Assembly: GCA_963768655.1 (NCBI GenBank)
Contig: CAVYIM010000007.1
Span: 192,001-256,000 of the forward strand
Reading direction: 5' to 3'
DNA: 64,000 bases
DNA from: an uncultured Chloroflexia bacterium
GTDB taxonomy: Bacteria; Chloroflexota; Limnocylindria; Limnocylindrales; CSP1-4
Position numbers and translations under genes: made by a program. Shown here one piece after another: positions 4,344 to 19,844 of the stretch; position 1 is the first letter of the stretch; each line of letters opens with the position of its first letter. Under the pieces are notes generated by a model. It saw only the letters and a list, made by a program, of their open reading frames with translations. It was not told where the DNA came from and did no database searches.

Positions 4344-5096
4344 ATGATCCGCAAGATCCACGGTTTCGTCGTGGCCGCCATCGCCGTTGCTGCGATCGCG
4401 AGCTTCTTGACCGTCTGGGTGCTTGCTTGGACTTACGGCGGGGACGCAACCGGTGGCTTTGAGCGCGCAGGCCACTTCTACATCTGGAATCGCCCCCACA
4501 CCGGCTACCAGGAGGTTTCGGAGACTATCTGGCAGCTGAGCTTGCTCGCGAACCGCACTTTGCCGATCCTGTGGCCTCTGATGCTCCTTGCCGGTGGCTC
4601 TTGGATCGTGGCGACCGAGAACAGGGTCCTCAATGGGACTGCCGCCCGAGAAATCGATAGTCGAGTCAGGTTCGTTAGGCGTTCGGGGCCATTGCTCTGT
4701 TCGCGGCGCCTCTCGGGCTCAAGCGGCCGAGTCTCAGTGTGGGGTCCGCTGTTCCTCGTCGAGGTCTATCCCGCCGGCGTGTTGGTCAAGCCCTGGTTGG
4801 TTCGGCGACACGCAGTTCTTGCGTCGGAGATCCAAGACGTGGTGGTCGGCAAGGAGCGAGGTCATGAATACCTCGACATCCACCACTCCGGTGCGGGCAT
4901 GCCCTCGCCAGTCAGGCTGTGGGAATCGCCTGGCGCTCCCCTAAGCGCGGCGATACGCACGATCGCCCAGGGACCGGCGGCTATGCAGCATCCAATACTG
5001 CCCACGCAGCAGCCCGCCTCCTGGCGACGACTTAGCTTCGCGATCAGGATCAGCCAAGAAGACGATCCGGCTTCTGCCAATCGAGACAAGCCGTAG
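4344..5096 (+). CDS. Hypothetical membrane protein
   Basis: 250-aa ORF with two hydrophobic segments; -10-like TAAGGT 6 nt before ATG. Confidence 0.65.
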   Translation: MIRKIHGFVVAAIAVAAIASFLTVWVLAWTYGGDATGGFERAGHFYIWNRPHTGYQEVSETIWQLSLLANRTLPILWPLMLLAGGSWIVATENRVLNGTAAREIDSRVRFVRRSGPLLCSRRLSGSSGRVSVWGPLFLVEVYPAGVLVKPWLVRRHAVLASEIQDVVVGKERGHEYLDIHHSGAGMPSPVRLWESPGAPLSAAIRTIAQGPAAMQHPILPTQQPASWRRLSFAIRISQEDDPASANRDKP

Positions 5097-5165
5097 GCCA
5101 TTCTTCCGCAACGGTTGATGCGCTAGTGACCCACCGATGGCGGCTCGACAGACCAGGTTCGCCCG

Positions 5166-5193
5166 AACGGACATAACCTCTCTTATCGGAAGT
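5166..5193 (-). other. dif-like XerC/XerD recombination site (degenerate)
   Basis: Minus strand reads ACTTCCGATAA-GAGAGG-TTATGTCCGTT: 11-6-11 layout with ATAA/TTATGT inner motifs. Confidence 0.65.
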
Positions 5194-5434
5194 GCCGAGG
5201 CTAGGCGACGCTCGGGAATTGGCCCATCGACGCGCAGTCGAACCAGAGATCGCCCGGGCACACACCGGCGGCAATGGCAGGTCGCCATCGGCGAAGGAAT
5301 GCGTCAGCGGGCTTGCGCGTGGCGGCCTTCATAGCTGACTGACTTGGAAACGGCTGGCCCGGGGAATCCAGGCGGCCCGCCGGCAAAGGGCGCTCGGCGG
5401 GCCGCGAGTGGCGGAGTTGTGGCAGATATGGAAC

Positions 5435-5516
5435 GCCCGGAGGAACCGCGACCCCGCATCGTTCGGCCGATCCGAGAATCGGTCGAGTCGTTCGGTATTT
5501 CGTGGCCCCTCCGGGC
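5435..5516 (-). ncRNA. Putative novel ncRNA, short copy (82-nt rod hairpin)
   Basis: GCCCGGAGGGGCC...GGTTCCTCCGGGC closing stem with G-U pairs; preceded by -35 TTGGCA, 17 bp, -10 TACAGT; homologous to 6614-6887. Confidence 0.6.
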
Positions 5517-5523
5517 AGGATTG

Positions 5524-5669
5524 ACTGTAGTCGTTGGGCCGCGGCGTGCCAACCGGCTTGTCCACTTTTCCCTGAAGATCGCCGAGGGATGCGGAGTACT
5601 GTCCACGGGCCGTGCACACCGACCGGCGCGACCGACCTGCGTGTCGAAGGCGAACAGAACACCCGTTCT
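5524..5669 (-). promoter_or_regulatory. Promoter module 1: -10 (5524-5529), DnaA-box-like motifs (5558, 5599), LexA box AGAACACCCGTTCT (5656-5669)
   Basis: Motifs read directly; spacing identical to module 2. Confidence 0.65.
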
Positions 5670-5677
5670 GGTGGCCG

Positions 5678-6463
5678 TCAGGACGGAAGGACGCGTCGCC
5701 GGCGGTGCAGCGTCTTGATGCGAAGCGTCAGCACCAGGCGGAAGGCTTCGAGGAAGATGGCCATGCTCATCTTGGACTGGCCGGCACGACGCTCTTCGAA
5801 CGTGATCGGCACCTCCAAGACGCGCGCGCCCGCGAGGCGAGCCTGGAAGGTTGTCTCGATCTCGAAGGCGTATCCGCCGGCGTGGAGCCGGTCGAGGTCG
5901 ATGGCGCGGAGCACGGAGGCGCGAAAGGCCTTGAAGCCGCCCGTGAGGTCGCGATATGGCATCAGGAGCACGACTGCGGCGAACACGCTGCCACCGAGGC
6001 TGATCAGGCGGCGAAAGATGTTCCAGCGAGGGATCTGCCCGCCCCGGACGTAACGCGACCCAAGGACCAGATCGGCGCGATCCGCCGCCAGCGGCTCTAG
6101 AAGCGCCGGCAGGAACCTGACCGGGTGGCTGAAGTCGGCGTCCATCTGCACGACCACGTCCGCGCCCCGGGCGAGCACGTCGCGGAAGGCGGCCACGTAG
6201 GCCCGTCCCAGCCCCTGCTTGGCCTGGCGGTGCAACACCGCGATCTGTGGGCATTTGCGAGACAGCTCGTCGGCGAGCTCGCCGGTGCCGTCCGGGGAGC
6301 CGTCGTCGACGATGAGCACGTTCGCCTGGGGCACCGTCGCGAGAATGGCATCGGCGATCGGCCCGACGTTCTCGCGTTCGTTGAACGTTGGAACGACAAC
6401 CCAGATGCGGGACGGCGCGGCGGAGATCTGGCTCGGAGTCGCGGACGGGGCGGTGGGCGGCAT
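5678..6463 (-). CDS. Polyprenol monophosphomannose synthase (GT2, Ppm1/Dpm1-like)
   Basis: VVVPTFNEREN, IVDDGSPDGTG, GLGRAY, QMDADFSH, GSRYVRGG, DLTGGFK. Confidence 0.92.
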   Translation of the reverse strand: MPPTAPSATPSQISAAPSRIWVVVPTFNERENVGPIADAILATVPQANVLIVDDGSPDGTGELADELSRKCPQIAVLHRQAKQGLGRAYVAAFRDVLARGADVVVQMDADFSHPVRFLPALLEPLAADRADLVLGSRYVRGGQIPRWNIFRRLISLGGSVFAAVVLLMPYRDLTGGFKAFRASVLRAIDLDRLHAGGYAFEIETTFQARLAGARVLEVPITFEERRAGQSKMSMAIFLEAFRLVLTLRIKTLHRRRRVLPS

Positions 6464-6613
6464 CGGCTTCCTGGCTGCGAAAAGGGGTCGCGGCCGAGGA
6501 TACCCTCTGTCTCCCCTACCCTGCTGGCCGCAGCGCGCCGTGCCGGGCCGGACTCGGGTCTCAACGTGGGCCCGCGGGCCGGTTGGGCTTGCTGCCGTCG
6601 GATACAAAGAAAC

Positions 6614-6887
6614 GCCCGAAGGAACCACTTCGATCGGACTGCGGTTTCGCGCGTACCGGCCGCTTTGACCACCGCAAGCAAGAGGTCCGAGGACTCCTCG
6701 CTCGAACGGCGACCTGCGCTCCGGCCACTGCCGGAACTGCCACCAACCCCTCTACATTCCACCTTCCGCGGCTACGATCTGCGATCCGGGCCGAGAACCG
6801 TTGCGGGCTCCTGGTCTTTCACGTAGATCGGTCACCGTTTCCGTTGAAACCGCTGAGTCGGTGTCGATCTCGCTGGCCCCTTCGGGC
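6614..6887 (-). ncRNA. Putative novel ncRNA, long copy (274 nt, rod with branched apex)
   Basis: Nested pairings GCCCGAAGGGGCC/GGTTCCTTCGGGC, GATCG/CGATC, GACT/AGTC, GCGGTTTC/GAAACCGC; -10 TATTGT 7 nt upstream; U-rich tail GTTTCTTT. Confidence 0.65.
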
Positions 6888-6894
6888 AAGACAG

Positions 6895-7040
6895 ACAATA
6901 GGTCCGGGCCCCCGCTGGGAGAAGTGGCTTATCCACCACTTTCGGTGCCTGGGAAGACAGTTTTGGCAGTTGTCCACTTCCTGCCAACAAGGGTAGGTCG
7001 GCGCGAACCCCTAGTGCGGACGAGTGAGAACGGTTGTTCT
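6895..7040 (-). promoter_or_regulatory. Promoter module 2: -10 (6895-6900), DnaA-box-like motifs (6929, 6970), LexA box AGAACGGTTGTTCT (7027-7040)
   Basis: Motifs read directly; all offset by exactly 1371 bp from module 1. Confidence 0.65.
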
Positions 7041-7100
7041 AGTACTCCCCCGCCCTGCCGGGTCCGTCCGCGGGCCTTTGACGCGCTTCCCAGTGGACCA

Positions 7101-8441
7101 TCAGGCGTCCTCGGACGCGGCGCCGGCGGGGGTTCCGTTGTCGGCTCGGAGCAATTCGCGGTAGCGCGCGGCGACTGCCTTCAGCTCGCCCGCCAGCGGC
7201 GGGCTGACACGTCCCCGGACGCGCACGTCGAAGGACCGATAGTCGAGATCCACGGTGCCACGCTCGCGGATGCGGGCGATCAGCTCCCCGGCGCGGTATG
7301 GGATCGCCACGTCCACGTCCACCCAGAGCGACGCCAGCAGGGCGGACAGCTCGGCCCTCAGCGTCTCGAGGCCGTATCCGGTCACGGCCGAGATGAGGAC
7401 CGTGCCCGCGATCGCCGGCGCAGGCGTGTCGCCGTCGCGAGCCGCCGCCTCGATCAGGTCGGCCTTGTTGAACGCCACGAGGCGCGGCTTGTCGCCAGCA
7501 CCGAGCTCCTCGAGCACGGTCTGGACGGTCGCGCGATGCTCGGCGAAGTGGCGGTCCGAGGCGTCGACGATCTCGAGCAGGACGTCGGCGCGTGTGACCT
7601 CCTCGAGCGTCGCCCGGAATGCGTCGACGAGCTGATGGGGCAGCTTGTGGATGAAGCCCACGGTGTCAGTGACGATCGCGGTCTGGCCTTCGCCCAGCTT
7701 GACCTGGCGGGACGTCGGATCGACGGTCGCGAACAGCCGGTCCTCGGCCTTGACGACCTCCTGGCCGACGAGCGCGTTCAGCAGCGTTGACTTGCCGGCG
7801 TTGGTGTAGCCGACGATGGCGACCGTCGGGATGAGCCTCCGGTCGCGCGCGCGGGTCGCCGTGCGGCGCTGCTCGGCCACCTGGTCGACGCGCTCCTTGA
7901 GCTTCTTGATCCGTTCACGCACCAGGCGCCGGTCGGTTTCGAGCTGCGATTCGCCGGGGCCCCTCGTGCCGATGCCGCCGCCGGTGCGCGAGAGGTGCGT
8001 CCACATCCGAGTCAGGCGCGGCAGCTGGTATTCGAGCTGCGCCAGCTCCACCTGGAGGCGGCCTTCGTGCGTCTGGGCGTGCAGGGCGAAGATGTCCAGG
8101 ATCAGCCGCGATCGGTCGATCACCTTGGTCCTGACGGCTTCCTCGAGGGCGCGCTGCTGGGCGGGTGACAGCTCGTCGTCGGTGATCAGGAGCGTGTAGC
8201 CGGTCTCTGATCGGGCGGCCACCAGCTCGTCGACCTTGCCCTTGCCGACGTAGAAGTTGGGGTCGACATGGCGGCGGTTCTGCCACTCGGCGCCGACAAC
8301 CTCGGCGCCGGCGGTGTCGGACAGGCTGGCCAGCTCCGCGATCGACTCCTCCGCCGTCCAGCCGGGATCGTCGCCGGTGTCGACCGCGACGAGAAAGGCG
8401 CGCTCCACCGGCGCGGTCAGATCGATCATGTTCCTGGTCAT
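7101..8441 (-). CDS. hflX: GTPase HflX
   Basis: [44 protein letters not shown]. Confidence 0.97.
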
Positions 8442-8631
8442 CACGGGCAGGATAGCCGAACGGCCGGCTGGCACGGTGCGGCTGAACGGCGGCCGGCCGA
8501 TGGCGACCGGCCCCGACGGCGGCGACCGGTGCGCCCGCCCGGCGCGAGCCTATACTCCGTCAGCTGGCTGCGTCCCCAGCACCGAGGTCCGTCACACCCC
8601 TCGGCGATCGGCACAAGGAGGAGAACAGCAG

Positions 8632-16100: not shown

Positions 16101-17183
16101 CTACTCGGCCTCCTCGATGCCCTCCACCGGCAGCGAGACTTCGGACATCTTGGCCCGGATCTGCTTCTCGACCTCGGCCGCGATGTCTGGATTGGCCTTC
16201 AGGAACTCCTTGGCGGCCTCCCGACCCTGGCCCAGCCGGGTTTCGCCGAAGGTGAACCAGGCCCCGGTCTTCGCGACCAGGCTCATGGCCGTCCCGACGT
16301 CAAGAAGGCCGCCTTCCTTGGAGATGCCCTGGCCGAACATGATGTCGAACTCGGCGGCCTTGAAAGGTGGCGCGACCTTGTTCTTGACGACCTTGACCTT
16401 GACGCGGTTGCCGACAGAGTCCGTGCCCGACTTGATCGTCTCGATGCGCCGGATGTCCAGGCGCACGCTGGCGTAGAACTTCAGGGCCCGGCCGCCCGGC
16501 GTGACCTCGGGATTCCCGAACATGACCCCGATCTTCTCGCGCAGCTGATTGGTGAAGATGAGGCTGGTGTTCGATCGACTGACGACGCCGGCGAGCTTGC
16601 GAAGGGCCTGGCTCATCAGCCGGGCCTGGATGCCCACGAACGAGTCGCCCATCTCGCCTTCGATCTCGGCCTTGGGCACGAGGGCGGCAACGGAGTCCAC
16701 CACGACGGCGTCCACACCGTTGGAGCGAATCAGCGTCTCGGTGATCTGCAGCGCGTCCTCGCCGGTGTCGGGCTGGCTGACGAGCAGTTCGTCCACGTTG
16801 ACGCCGCAGGCGCGCGCGTAGCCCGGATCGAGGGCATGCTCGACGTCGATGAAGGCGACTACGCCGCCCTTGCGCTGAGCTTCCGCCAGGATGTGCTGAC
16901 ACAGCGTGGTCTTGCCCGACGATTCGGGCCCGAAAATCTCGGTGATGCGACCGCGCGGGATTCCACCCACGCCCAGGGCGAGGTCCAGCGCTATCGAGCC
17001 AGTTGGTATGACGTCAACCTGGGCTCGTTCCGACGAGCCGAGACGCATGATCGAGCCTCGCCCGAATTGCTTCTCGATGGCCAGAATCGCCGCGTCGACG
17101 GCCTTGGTGCGTTCATTCGGGCGCTCGGTAGAGCGCTCCGCGCCTGTTGCCCGGGCCTCGGTCCCTCGCTCGATCATCGCCAC
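16101..17183 (-). CDS. recA: Recombinase RecA
   Basis: [46 protein letters not shown]. Confidence 0.99.
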
Positions 17184-17264
17184 CTAGCTCCTCGCTCCTG
17201 TCCTCGATCGTTGCCACGACTTGGGATTAGCGGAACGGGTCGCCGGACGGCGTCCGCCCGCCTA

Positions 17265-17420
17265 TTAGCTCTCGGTCTCGTCGGTCCGCGGCTTCCGCTT
17301 CGGCTTCCACACCTCGACGTTGGTGGGGGGCTCCAGCATGGGCTGGATCTGGGGGGTCTTCTTCCCAGCGTCCTTGGGCTTCTTCTTTTCTTCACGGTGC
17401 GGGCGGTCTCGGCTCGCCAT
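17265..17420 (-). CDS. Small basic hypothetical protein (51 aa)
   Basis: GGAGG RBS; MASRDRPHREEKKKPKDAGKK...KPKRKPRTDETES; tandem stops. Confidence 0.65.
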   Translation of the reverse strand: MASRDRPHREEKKKPKDAGKKTPQIQPMLEPPTNVEVWKPKRKPRTDETES

Positions 17421-17460
17421 CGGGTGCGCCTCCGCGTTCCACAGGCTACTGGTGGGCTCT

Positions 17461-18666
17461 TCACTCCGGCTGCACTGGCAATGCACGCGCTCCTGACGGA
17501 GGGGTCCGCGCCCGGAGTCCGGGCAGCCGATCGGAGAACGTGCCTGAGCGCAGCGCGTCGCGGATTTCGGCCATGAAGTCTAGGGTGAAGGTCATGTTGT
17601 GACAAGTTGCCAGGCGGTAGGCGAGAAGCTCCTCGGCACGGAACAGGTGAGCCAGATAAGCGCGCGAGAAGTTGCGACACAGCAGACAGCGGCAGCCCTC
17701 CTGGACCGGCCGGCGGTCCTCCACGAACTGGGCGTTGCGCATGTTCAGGCGGCCGCCGGGGACCCACAGCTGACCGTTGCGGGCGACTCGTGCCGGCAGC
17801 ACGGAGTCGAACAGATCGACGCCGCGATGCACCGCCTCGAGCAGGTCCGCCGGCGAGCCGAGGCCCATCAGGTAGCGCGGCCGCGGATCGTCGGCAAGCA
17901 GGCCGATGGCAACGGCGAGAGCTGCCTCACGCTGGGCGGGTGTCTCATCGCCGGCCAGGCCGCCGATGCAGATGCCGTCGAACGGCTGGCCCGCCATGAA
18001 ACTCGTCGACTCGGCTCGAAGCCGCGGATCGAGGCCGCCCTGGACGACGCCGAAAAGGGCTTGATCGGGTCGCGTGTGCGCGGCGAGCGAGCGCTCGGCC
18101 CAGCGATGAGTGCGAGCCATGGCTTCCGCGACGGCCTGCGGGGTCGACGAGGCGGGCGGCACCGGCTGATCGAAAGCGACGGCGATGTCTGCGCCGAGCG
18201 CCTCCTGCACGGCGATCGAGTGCTCGGGCGTGAAGCGATGGTAGGAGCCGTCGAGATGGCTCTGGAAGGTGACGCCCTCGTCGTCGATCTTGCGCAACTC
18301 GCCCATCGAGGCAACCTGGAACCCGCCTGAGTCGGTGAGGAGCGGCCGGTCCCAGGCCATGAAGCTGTGCAGGCCGCCGAGCCGCGCAATTCGCTCGTGT
18401 CCGGGGCGAAGGTAGAGGTGATACGTGTTGGCCAGGATGATCGTGGCGCCGGCCTCGCGAAGGTCGTCGGGAGCGAGCGCCTTCACCGTCGCGTTGGTGC
18501 CGACCGGCATGAACTGGGGCGTCTCAACGACCCCGTGGGGCAGCGTCAGCCGCCCGACCCGACCTTGAGTGGACCCATCGCCGGGCGGCGCGACCTCGAC
18601 TTCGTAGCGGACCGGAGATGTCTTGGGGATGCGATGGGCGGGCGGGCGATCCGGTGCGTCTGCCAT
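17461..18666 (-). CDS. tgt: tRNA-guanine transglycosylase
   Basis: TPQFMPVGT, ANTYHL, DSGGFQ, RYLMGLG, CRCLLC zinc site. Confidence 0.96.
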   Translation of the reverse strand: MADAPDRPPAHRIPKTSPVRYEVEVAPPGDGSTQGRVGRLTLPHGVVETPQFMPVGTNATVKALAPDDLREAGATIILANTYHLYLRPGHERIARLGGLHSFMAWDRPLLTDSGGFQVASMGELRKIDDEGVTFQSHLDGSYHRFTPEHSIAVQEALGADIAVAFDQPVPPASSTPQAVAEAMARTHRWAERSLAAHTRPDQALFGVVQGGLDPRLRAESTSFMAGQPFDGICIGGLAGDETPAQREAALAVAIGLLADDPRPRYLMGLGSPADLLEAVHRGVDLFDSVLPARVARNGQLWVPGGRLNMRNAQFVEDRRPVQEGCRCLLCRNFSRAYLAHLFRAEELLAYRLATCHNMTFTLDFMAEIRDALRSGTFSDRLPGLRARTPPSGARALPVQPE

Positions 18667-19751
18667 CAGCGAGCGGATGCGTCGGGGTCGGTCGTGCCGT
18701 CCCAGAGCGCCGGCTGGTCGGCATCGCTGCGCCGCGGCGGCGGTACTTCGTAACCGAGGCGCGCCAGGTGCTGGCGAGCGCCGTCCGTGGCGATACGACC
18801 CTGTGGGGTCCGGTCGAGGAACCCCAGCCGCAGAAGGAAGGGCTCGTAGACGTCCTCGACCGTTTCCGGCTCCTCTGCCAGAACCGCGGCCAAGGCTTGC
18901 ACTCCCACCGGCCCGCCGCCGAACTTCTGGACGATGGCGGCGAGCAGCTTGCGGTCCGTCCCGTCCAGGCCGGCGTCGTCGATCTCGAGAGCGGCCAGTG
19001 CCTGATCGGCGGTGGCGGCGTCGACCCTGCCATCGCCGTGGATCTGGGCGTAGTCGCGCACGCGACGCAGCAGGCGGTTCACGACGCGTGGAGTGCCGCG
19101 ACCGCGGCGGGCGATCGCGGCGGCCCCGTCCGAGCTGAGCTCCACGCCCAGCAGCCGAGCGGACCGCTCGACGATCGCCGTCAGGTCCGCAAGATCGTAG
19201 AAGTCAAGCCGGTAGGTGGCGCCGAAACGGTCGCGCAGCGGGCTGGATATTCGACCCGCCCGCGTGGTCGCTCCGACGATCGTGAACGGCTTCAGGCTGA
19301 GGCGCAGGCTGCGGGCCGACGGCCCCTTGCCGATCATGACGTCGAGGGCGTAGTCCTCCATCGCCGGGTAGAGGATCTCCTCGACAGCGCGATTGAGGCG
19401 GTGGATCTCATCGATGAAGAGGACGTCGCGCTCGTCCAGCGACGTCAGAATGGCGGCGAGGTCCCCTGCCCGCTCGATCGCGGGGCCGCTGGCATACCGA
19501 ATGTTCGCGCCGAGCTCGCGGGCCACGATCGTGGCCAGCGTGGTCTTGCCCAGGCCGGGCGGGCCGTGGAGCAGGATGTGGTCCGCCGCGTCCCCTCTCT
19601 GGCGGGCGGCTCCGAGCAGGACCGAGAGATTGGCCTTCAGCTCGCGCTGGCCGATGTACTCACCGAGAGTCTTGGGCCGCAGCGTCCGGTCGACGACGAC
19701 GTCGGCGTCTTCCTGGATGTCCGGGGCCAGGATGCGCGAGAAGTCAGTCAC
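18666..19751 (-). CDS. ruvB: Holliday junction helicase RuvB
   Basis: [34 protein letters not shown]. Confidence 0.98.
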
Positions 19752-19774: not shown

Positions 19775-19800
19775 ATCATACCAGACCGAACGGGTGTTCT
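19775..19800 (-). promoter_or_regulatory. Extended -10 (TGGTATGAT) with adjacent LexA box upstream of ruvB
   Basis: CGAACGGGTGTTCT at 19787-19800 (GAAC-N4-GTTC). Confidence 0.75.
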
Positions 19801-19844
19801 ACCTTCGGAATCGCTCCAGGTTCGAGCCATCCGGAGCGAAGATT

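Follow-up and report, generated by a model that had tools for sequence, protein, structure and literature searches.

6S RNA has paralogues in some bacteria. The RsmX/Y/Z and CsrB/C sponge RNAs are also paralogous, carry variable numbers of hairpin modules, have an upstream activating sequence in common and end in terminators. The Y RNAs (Ro/Rsr) are paralogues of variable size, in which a conserved 5'-3' terminal stem encloses variable interiors. Here we describe RNA A and RNA B, two small-RNA genes in a stretch of 64,000 nucleotides from an uncultured Chloroflexia bacterium (the window; contig C7, positions 192001-256000, of genome G000, which has 3.37 Mb in 9 contigs, 68-69% G+C and a completeness of 88.6%). 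We report the genes, their structure and conservation, their promoter motifs and the heavy representation of RNA B in RNA libraries. They belong to an undescribed, modular small-RNA family in one family of Chloroflexota, class Limnocylindria; our literature searches found no description of it. The finding is real and larger than the first-pass annotation of this DNA had reported, and the link to LexA drawn there is secondary.

The locus resembles each of the described systems in part. As for 6S RNA and Ms1, the genes stand alone with their own promoters, and the RNAs have paired ends and paralogues and are very highly represented in RNA libraries. With the Rsm/Csr RNAs, as far as we know these, the family has in common paralogues with variable modules and one upstream promoter motif. 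It differs from them in having no evident GGA-loop motif, in a DnaA-box-like motif instead of a GacA/UvrY site, and in a constant part that is an end-to-end helix. The terminal stem, size-variable paralogues and variable interiors recall Y RNA, but the Rfam models for Y RNA and YrlA gave no match and a TROVE-domain (Ro) gene (PF05731) had 0 matches in this 88.6%-complete genome. No small-RNA family with DnaA-type boxes at fixed promoter positions was found in the literature searches.

The two RNA genes are as follows.

5435..5516, minus strand: RNA A, an 82-nt rod-like small RNA (fold, genus alignment, covariance model CM R1)
6614..6887, minus strand: RNA B, a 274-nt branched RNA with a closing helix as in RNA A (fold, covariation, contigs of RNA runs)

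RNA A begins with GCCCGGAGGGGCC and ends with GGTTCCTCCGGGC, and the termini of RNA B are GCCCGAAGGGGCC and GGTTCCTTCGGGC. In both RNAs the start, GCCCG(G/A)AGGGGCC, pairs with the end, GGTTCCT(C/T)CGGGC, to give a 13-bp closing helix; in RNA A the 5' GCCCGGAGGGGCC pairs with the 3' GGUUCCUCCGGGC. This helix contains two G-U pairs that can form on the minus strand only, and both are present in 37/37 genus sequences of the alignments made from the whole-region BLAST. An internal CGACTC is common to both RNAs, as had been noted before. The predicted fold of RNA A has -46.9 kcal/mol (z -4.8) and that of RNA B -130.7 kcal/mol (z -3.5); in each case 0/200 shuffles equalled it. Fold and alignment agree with the shapes first proposed, an 82-nt rod for RNA A and a 274-nt branched body for RNA B.

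A BLAST search with the 1.7-kb region found the RNA A-B locus in 24/24 other genus genomes searched, while in the sister family it returned chance-level fragments only, in 4/16 genomes. Orthologues were extracted from 20 loci (17 of RNA A and 20 of RNA B). The 28 predicted pairs of RNA A hold across the 17 sequences and are nearly invariant, with compensatory changes in 2 of them. RNA B has 80 predicted pairs in 12 helices, and 96.2% of the cells in the genus alignment are paired. Fifteen of these pairs were changed on both sides, compared to 8.1 +/- 1.8 in 500 column shuffles, of which 0/500 reached 15; in a slid control, with the partners shifted by 1-3 columns, 3-8 pairs were changed on both sides. 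The resulting architecture is a closing helix, a short second helix and then four arms at a central junction, and not a rod. RNA B itself was found by BLAST in 4/4 other genomes of the genus and in 0/116 genomes of the family's other genera; BLAST has little power for RNA, and there are further long members that have this helix.

The closing helix is followed by the tails GUUCCAUAUC in RNA A and GUUUCUUUGU in RNA B. Compared to an intrinsic terminator the helix is atypical, as it encloses 50-250 nt; most 82-88-nt members of the family described below have the U-rich tail, which is weak in many of the 73-nt ones. At 6633..6616 a local terminator hairpin of six pairs was rejected, because inspection of the alignment showed that it is not kept in relatives.

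The first-pass annotation had taken the two RNAs for orphans. This has to be revised, as the genome contains a third copy and at least 120 further loci have the same closing helix. The third member, RNA C (74 nt, C9:209918-209991), has the same helix, a U-rich tail (GUUUUCUCUU) and GTGGATAAG upstream. The genome thus holds three copies, and a loose two-arm search of it yielded no further member among 130 pairs, most of them spurious. A TPP riboswitch (72 bits; L174:4670-4780, corresponding to G000:C9:~208670-208780, minus strand) is located about 1.1 kb away from RNA C. A stretch of 188 nt at C9:21414-21601, possibly a further structured RNA, follows an A+T-richer stretch and shows partial similarity in its paired ends (GGCTGAAGGGGC ... 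GGCTCCTTCGGGA); it had no match in Rfam, where the sole match in the locus was a nearby tRNA.

A covariance model built from RNA A alone (CM R1) detected relatives in 38/151 genomes of the order, all of them in the window's family (37/108) and none in the small-genome sister family (0/42). Relatives from other genera differ in the interior and have closing helix, tail and upstream boxes in common with RNA A. A scan for the exact pattern of both helix arms, at a distance of 45-75 nt, gave at least 120 stretches, with few exceptions under titles such as Candidatus Limnocylindrales, Limnocylindria, Chloroflexota or Chloroflexia metagenome-assembled genome (MAG). Among the matches listed there are 126 RNAs (116 distinct) of 73-88 nt in several subfamilies, the commonest sizes being 73 nt (45), 82 nt (20), 86 nt (14) and 83 nt (12). 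The same loci contain longer members of 145-146 nt (7), 179-180 nt (2) and 273-277 nt (10). Every 5' arm in these loci has a matching 3' arm, and the predicted folds place one, two or more arms inside the same closing helix. Across 401 sampled genomes of the phylum, the pattern was present in 19/23 genomes of the window's family and in 0/4 of the sister family, 0/18 of the rest of the class and 0/355 others; the reversed-pattern control gave 0.

The swap between a G-C and an A-U pair, seen at first between RNA A and RNA B alone, turned out to be real covariation. At helix position 6 the 116 distinct RNAs have A-U in 49, G-C in 27, G-U in 38 and A.C in 2 cases, and positions 4 and 5 are always Watson-Crick or G-U.

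Up to three copies were found within 8 kb. Tandem or near-tandem copies occur at loci L106, L121, L129, L165, L154 and L156, for example two identical copies of 145-146 nt at a distance of 600-1200 bp, or up to three copies of 86-88 nt in 8 kb, which suggests recent local duplication. Such copies, sometimes in tandem and several per genome, together with 13-nt terminal inverted repeats and variable interiors, are also what a miniature inverted-repeat transposable element (MITE) or other mobile repeat could look like. We nevertheless consider a mobile repeat highly improbable: this genome has three copies only, their positions are syntenic across the genus, and the two G-U pairs are strand-specific and would be A.C mismatches on the other strand. 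Moreover, a conserved promoter stands in register in front of 117/124 genes among the matches listed, and RNA B is heavily represented in RNA libraries.

The units were also compared with known RNA families. At the gathering threshold, Rfam matched the whole window only at a tRNA gene (51623-51696, minus strand, 73.7 bits). Rfam 15 applied to the interval 5000-7400 at E up to 10 gave three chance-level hits only, of 16-17 bits, and five loci with other family members gave 0 matches at E up to 0.01. The earlier description of the units as homologous minus-strand RNA genes with their own promoters is borne out, and they have no Rfam match. They are not tmRNA, RNase P or SRP RNA, none of which the annotation had recognised in them. 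A housekeeping RNA was rejected, since all three are located elsewhere in the genome (SRP RNA at C5:470542-470805, RNase P RNA at C6:26231-26599 and tmRNA at C3:122850-123221). A tRNA origin of the closing helix was likewise rejected, as 0/51 tRNAs start with GCCCGGA or GCCCGAA.

A search of sequencing runs returned small shares (0.05-0.18) and six RNA runs, all labelled peat metatranscriptomes; the shares being small, the habitat is given here only as in the labels of the runs placed. Contigs of three RNA runs from three studies (3865, 299 and 1206 contigs placed) and of one DNA run were placed on 5380-7100 at 85% likeness. In the RNA runs an appreciable depth was found only in the five bins of 6598-6887, which correspond to RNA B, and the summed word depth over RNA B was 0.52-1.99 million, 0.06-0.43 million and 0.19-1.34 million in the three runs. 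Depth was 0 in 6888-7100 and 6424-6597, and 0-18 over the downstream gene for a family 2 glycosyltransferase (GT2). The lowest coordinate among the pieces listed (8 per run) was 6615, and the loose sequence found before 6629 represents the RNA 3' end in the version of a relative and stops at GGGC. In the DNA run, RNA A had a depth of 80.8 and RNA B of 3-73, and coverage continued into the flanks. In the RNA libraries of three studies, RNA B orthologues are therefore very plentiful, and their coverage breaks off at the borders that had been predicted.

The protein-coding genes next to the two RNAs are the following.

5678..6463, minus strand: GT2 gene, between both RNA genes (Pfam PF00535, 2.6e-27)
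7101..8474, minus strand: hflX GTPase gene, upstream of RNA B (Pfam GTP-bdg_N, GTP-bdg_M, MMR_HSR1 and HflX_C)

On the minus strand the gene order is miaB, miaA, hflX (8474..7101), RNA B, GT2 (6463..5678) and RNA A. As RNA B precedes GT2 by 150 nt on the same strand, the units could be cis-acting 5' leaders or stabilisers of downstream mRNAs (GT2 for RNA B), with the terminated leader accumulating. The 73-nt members of other genera would fit such a role: many are without a U-tail, and in 13/16 loci a conserved ORF starts ~20 nt downstream. This ORF (for instance L068:4502-5578, plus strand) has no Pfam match; it looks like a membrane protein, going by hydrophobic stretches at both ends, and is followed by a gene for a MerR/HTH-GAF regulator. 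The neighbourhoods of the 73-nt members (tRNA_edit, HAD, TPK and MerR-GAF genes and the Pfam-less membrane protein) gave no functional lead. For RNA A and RNA B, however, a leader seems unlikely to us. The contigs of the RNA runs stop at the 3' end of RNA B, with no depth over the 150-nt gap and next to none over GT2, and no riboswitch family of Rfam matched. Past RNA A the nearest gene-like ORF (4344-5096, plus strand) converges on it; no gene is discernible after RNA A on its own strand, where small ORFs had no Pfam match. In another genus two family RNAs follow hflX without a GT2 gene. The order of hflX and then RNA thus recurs there, and the GT2 gene, which had been noted as flanked by the two units, is incidental.

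The convergent ORF 4344-5096 is judged from its sequence to be a membrane protein and had no match in a Pfam search. In genus relatives (L003, L004, L006, L014, L019 and others) a direct repeat, CCGTCAC-N4-CCGTCAC, lies 10-25 nt downstream of RNA A; the copy in the window is degenerate (CTGCCACAACTCCGCCAC). It may be a binding site for a response regulator.

The abundance of RNA B in the libraries also raises the question of whether RNA B, and perhaps other longer members, is the lineage's 6S- or Ms1-like RNA, an abundant RNA that binds RNA polymerase. Its paired ends and the existence of paralogues would agree with this. In addition, SRP RNA, RNase P RNA and tmRNA were found in the genome, yet the Rfam 6S model has 0 matches there and in 0/151 genomes of the class. 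This silence says little either way, because the model detects only 4-5 of 14 control genomes. A distribution complementary to that of 6S RNA was for its part uninformative, the model being silent in all 151 genomes. Several points speak against the identification, which we regard as doubtful: neither 6S nor any other Rfam family matched at E up to 10, and the four-arm junction with covariation support differs from the 6S rod of about 150-200 nt with its central bubble. The family ranges from 73 to 277 nt, and its paralogues of 73-88 nt (RNA A 82, RNA C 74) are too short for the role. The synteny is different as well: that of Ms1 in Actinobacteria involves a HAD hydrolase (PMC9130861), and this arrangement does not apply to RNA A or RNA B.

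Upstream of the RNA genes, core promoters and DnaA-box-like motifs are located as follows.

5524..5552, minus strand: RNA A core promoter, -35 TTGGCA (5552..5547), 17-nt spacer, -10 TACAGT (5529..5524), inferred start 5516 (promoter scan)
5555..5565, minus strand: proximal DnaA-box-like motif GTGGACAAGCC, abutting the RNA A -35, about -50..-40
5599..5606, minus strand: distal DnaA-box-like motif GTGGACAG of RNA A, about -90
6895..6923, minus strand: RNA B core promoter, weak -35 TTCTCC (6923..6918), 17-nt spacer, -10 TATTGT (6900..6895), inferred start 6887
6926..6936, minus strand: proximal DnaA-box-like motif GTGGATAAGCC, abutting the RNA B -35
6970..6989, minus strand: distal DnaA-box-like motif GTGGACAA (6977..6970) of RNA B and, ~11 bp upstream, a conserved TGTTGGC (6989..6983)

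Read on the plus strand, the proximal and distal motifs are TTGTCCAC at 5558 and CTGTCCAC at 5599 for RNA A, and TTATCCAC at 6929 and TTGTCCAC at 6970 for RNA B. On the minus strand each unit consists of AGAAC-N4-GTTCT, ~48 nt, GTGGACA(G/A), ~33 nt, GTGGA(C/T)AAGCC, 2 nt, the -35, 17 nt, the -10, 7 nt and the RNA start. The five elements that had been reported to recur between the units, from the LexA-type box to the RNA start, are all in place, with an offset of exactly 1371 bp, and their recurrence goes beyond chance. The RNA A promoter (TTGGCA-17-TACAGT) has 9/12 consensus matches, for which shuffles expect 0.1 in the promoter scan. Upstream of RNA A, gTTGgC and TA.A.T are kept in 17 relatives; upstream of RNA B, CTtcc and TA...T are kept in 20 relatives, as is the proximal motif TGGTGGATAAGCC (20/20). 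The spacers have diverged, as previously suggested: genus relatives keep the boxes and hexamers upstream of both RNAs and not the spacers. Fixed boxes with drifting spacers form the pattern that is expected of protein-binding sites.

The same arrangement was found throughout the family. Among the matches listed, 117/124 family genes have GTGGAYA within 180 nt upstream on the RNA strand. The motif occurs as a GTGGAYAA-like pair in the same orientation, concentrated at -48..-54 and -81..-94, and most of the 124 promoters have TAnnnT at -13/-14. The family consensus is a.TCGTGGATAAGcc for the proximal and GTGGACAAC for the distal box. Many other genera have a third element, TGTGGGAA, ~11 bp further upstream, where RNA B has TGTTGGC. 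A general promoter element of stable-RNA genes was rejected, since GTGGAYA, expected by chance 0.008 times per 140 nt, is absent from the 140 nt upstream of 51/51 tRNA genes and of the genes for SRP RNA, RNase P RNA and tmRNA. The hallmark of the RNA family is therefore the pair of DnaA-box-like motifs and not the LexA box.

The DnaA box consensus is a 9-mer, of which the other strand of the motif, TT(A/G)TCCAC, matches eight bases. TT[AG]TCCAC has 69 sites in the 3.37-Mb genome. The motif forms a cluster upstream of dnaN (GTGGATAAGG, GTGGATAACC and copies that are weaker, with the flavour (C/G)GTGGATAA), ~4 kb from dnaA, in a region that is probably oriC (G000:C3:~106300-106400). It is also present upstream of a parA-like gene. 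At C3:~145160, ~39 kb from the dnaN-upstream cluster, a parS-like palindrome (TGTTTCACGTGAAACG) adjoins a GTGGACAAG box. The first-pass annotation had read the promoter motifs as DnaA boxes with one or two mismatches. They are conserved and match the dnaN-upstream cluster. The 8-mer is present, and many other genera have a perfect 9-mer (TTGTCCACA) at the distal box; at the proximal box the ninth base is mostly not A. DnaA is the most likely protein to bind the promoter boxes, judging from these matches. Since the boxes match the cluster at dnaN, a coupling of the RNAs to replication status may reasonably be inferred.

Further upstream, each unit has a LexA-type box.

5656..5669, unstranded: LexA-type palindrome AGAACACCCGTTCT, about -152 of RNA A, 9 bp past the GT2 stop codon
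7027..7040, unstranded: LexA-type palindrome AGAACGGTTGTTCT, about -152 of RNA B, 60 bp past the hflX stop codon

The palindrome is rare, as the genome contains 7 AGAAC-N4-GTTCT and 51 GAAC-N4-GTTC sites. By alignment count, the RNA B box is an exact GAAC-N4-GTTC in 19/20 genus relatives, the remaining one having GAAC-N4-GTGC, and the RNA A box is exact in 10/17, with the rest one or two bases off. The genome's own SOS boxes are CGAACGGGCGTTCT in the lexA promoter, AGAACACCCGTTCG in front of the recA operon and AGAACACATGTTCT at an imuA-like gene; the box of RNA A has all but one base in common with that of the recA operon. It is therefore credible, going by these likenesses, that both RNA boxes are LexA sites. 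The box of each of the three SOS promoters is located on the -35 and -10 hexamers or between them: the lexA promoter reads TTGACA-ATCGAACGGGCGTTCTG-TACCCT, that of the imuA-like RecA paralogue TTGACT-ATTAGAACACATGTTC-TAGTAT, and at the recA operon AGAACACCCGTTCG (window 19788-19801) is followed by TATGAT 6 nt later. The recA gene is in the window as well (16101..17183), ~10 kb from the RNA units. A run of minus-strand ORFs behind the AGAACACCCGTTCG box (16101-19751) ends in recA, and is probably an SOS-controlled recA operon. At C3:604265-604891 there is a RecA-like, possibly imuA-like ORF, with its box at C3:604054 and a second similar box (ACGAACACATGTTCTAT) at C3:608858; this region looks like an SOS mutagenesis cassette.

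It had been proposed that LexA and DnaA jointly control the two RNAs as SOS-inducible genes. The match of the boxes to bona fide SOS boxes of the genome and their retention in the genus are consistent with this, and in about half of the relatives the RNA B box is followed, after 2-3 nt, by a -10-like hexamer (TACAAT, TATAAT or TGCAAT), which makes a second, LexA-gated promoter upstream of RNA B conceivable. In contrast to the operators of the three SOS promoters, however, the boxes lie ~150 bp upstream of the RNA start and outside the core promoter, with no -10 hexamer within 6 nt in this genome. Depth in the RNA runs is 0 between the box and the RNA start. Only 4/124 family promoters among the matches listed have a LexA-type box, which makes it genus-specific. 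Joint SOS control is accordingly an explanation to which we give little credence. Of the original LexA claim, the identity of the sites stands on sequence likeness, and the position and family-wide distribution speak against a simple operator role; coupling to DNA damage is unproven and at most genus-specific because of the low count, the -152 position and the missing -10.

We hold with moderate confidence that RNA A and RNA B are two of three paralogous genes in this genome that encode stand-alone, self-terminating, DnaA-gated and protein-binding small RNAs. Each gene would have a sigma-70-type promoter with its -10 at -13, preceded by two or three DnaA-box-like motifs in the same orientation, of which one abuts the -35 and one or two lie about four helical turns upstream. 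DnaA would bind these boxes and gate transcription. Activation is favoured over occlusion, because a box abuts the weak -35 of RNA B. Transcription would start at the G of GCCCG, and the first 13 nt would pair with the last 13 nt; the helix and the U-rich tail would then terminate the transcript and bury both ends, which would explain the accumulation of the RNA. The invariant helix may serve as a common handle for a protein or for stability, while the interior of one to four subfamily-specific arms would carry the specific function. The RNAs would thus work by binding protein and not as leaders. In this genus LexA may provide a second input through the -152 box.

Several observations weigh against this reading. 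In 13 contigs of two runs an Illumina adapter directly follows 6877-6880, so that a fragment ends 7-10 nt before the predicted start is reached; the reverse transcriptase may have dropped off in the GC-rich helix, or the 5' end may differ slightly from the prediction. RNA A had a depth of 0, 0 and 8.2 in the RNA runs. This scarcity may reflect weak expression or the loss of an 82-nt RNA in library preparation, and we do not count it as silence. As the contigs give no strand, exact ends or expression level and the runs were chosen through this very sequence, our claim for RNA B is kept to its abundance in the libraries and the borders of its coverage. At the proximal box the position that would complete the 9-mer is C or G, and not T (70 C and 20 G of 97), so that another factor with a similar specificity may act in place of DnaA, and binding of DnaA and LexA to the boxes here is a prediction from sequence. 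The invariance of the remaining helix positions in the 126 RNAs is partly forced, as the search pattern fixed these positions, and their constancy hence proves nothing. Finally, the 73-nt members without a U-tail just before an ORF suggest that the chassis can also head an mRNA.

Two bolder versions go beyond the reading that we favour. The RNAs may form a new class of ribonucleoprotein (RNP)-forming RNAs, in which the 13-bp terminal helix with its tandem G-U step would be the handle for one dedicated protein and the genes would constitute a DnaA-driven regulon; we consider this a long shot. In the boldest version, replication initiation would be subject to feedback from the RNAs, which might for instance titrate DnaA or one of its partners; they would then be a counterpart of 6S RNA that acts on the replication initiator.

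To our knowledge, Limnocylindria have no cultured member, and they are abundant in soil, peat and freshwater. Our literature search found no paper on noncoding RNAs of Limnocylindria. All members of the family keep a constant chassis, consisting of the promoter, the first 13 nt and the last 13 nt, around an interior that varies and is built anew of one to four arms. Other stable-RNA genes do not share the promoter signature, which matches the binding site of the replication initiator. If it is true that DnaA drives these genes, the output of a small-RNA family would be tied to replication status, a case of which the literature searches found no example. For environmental RNA data the family also offers a concrete RNA marker of this lineage, and one that is highly expressed.

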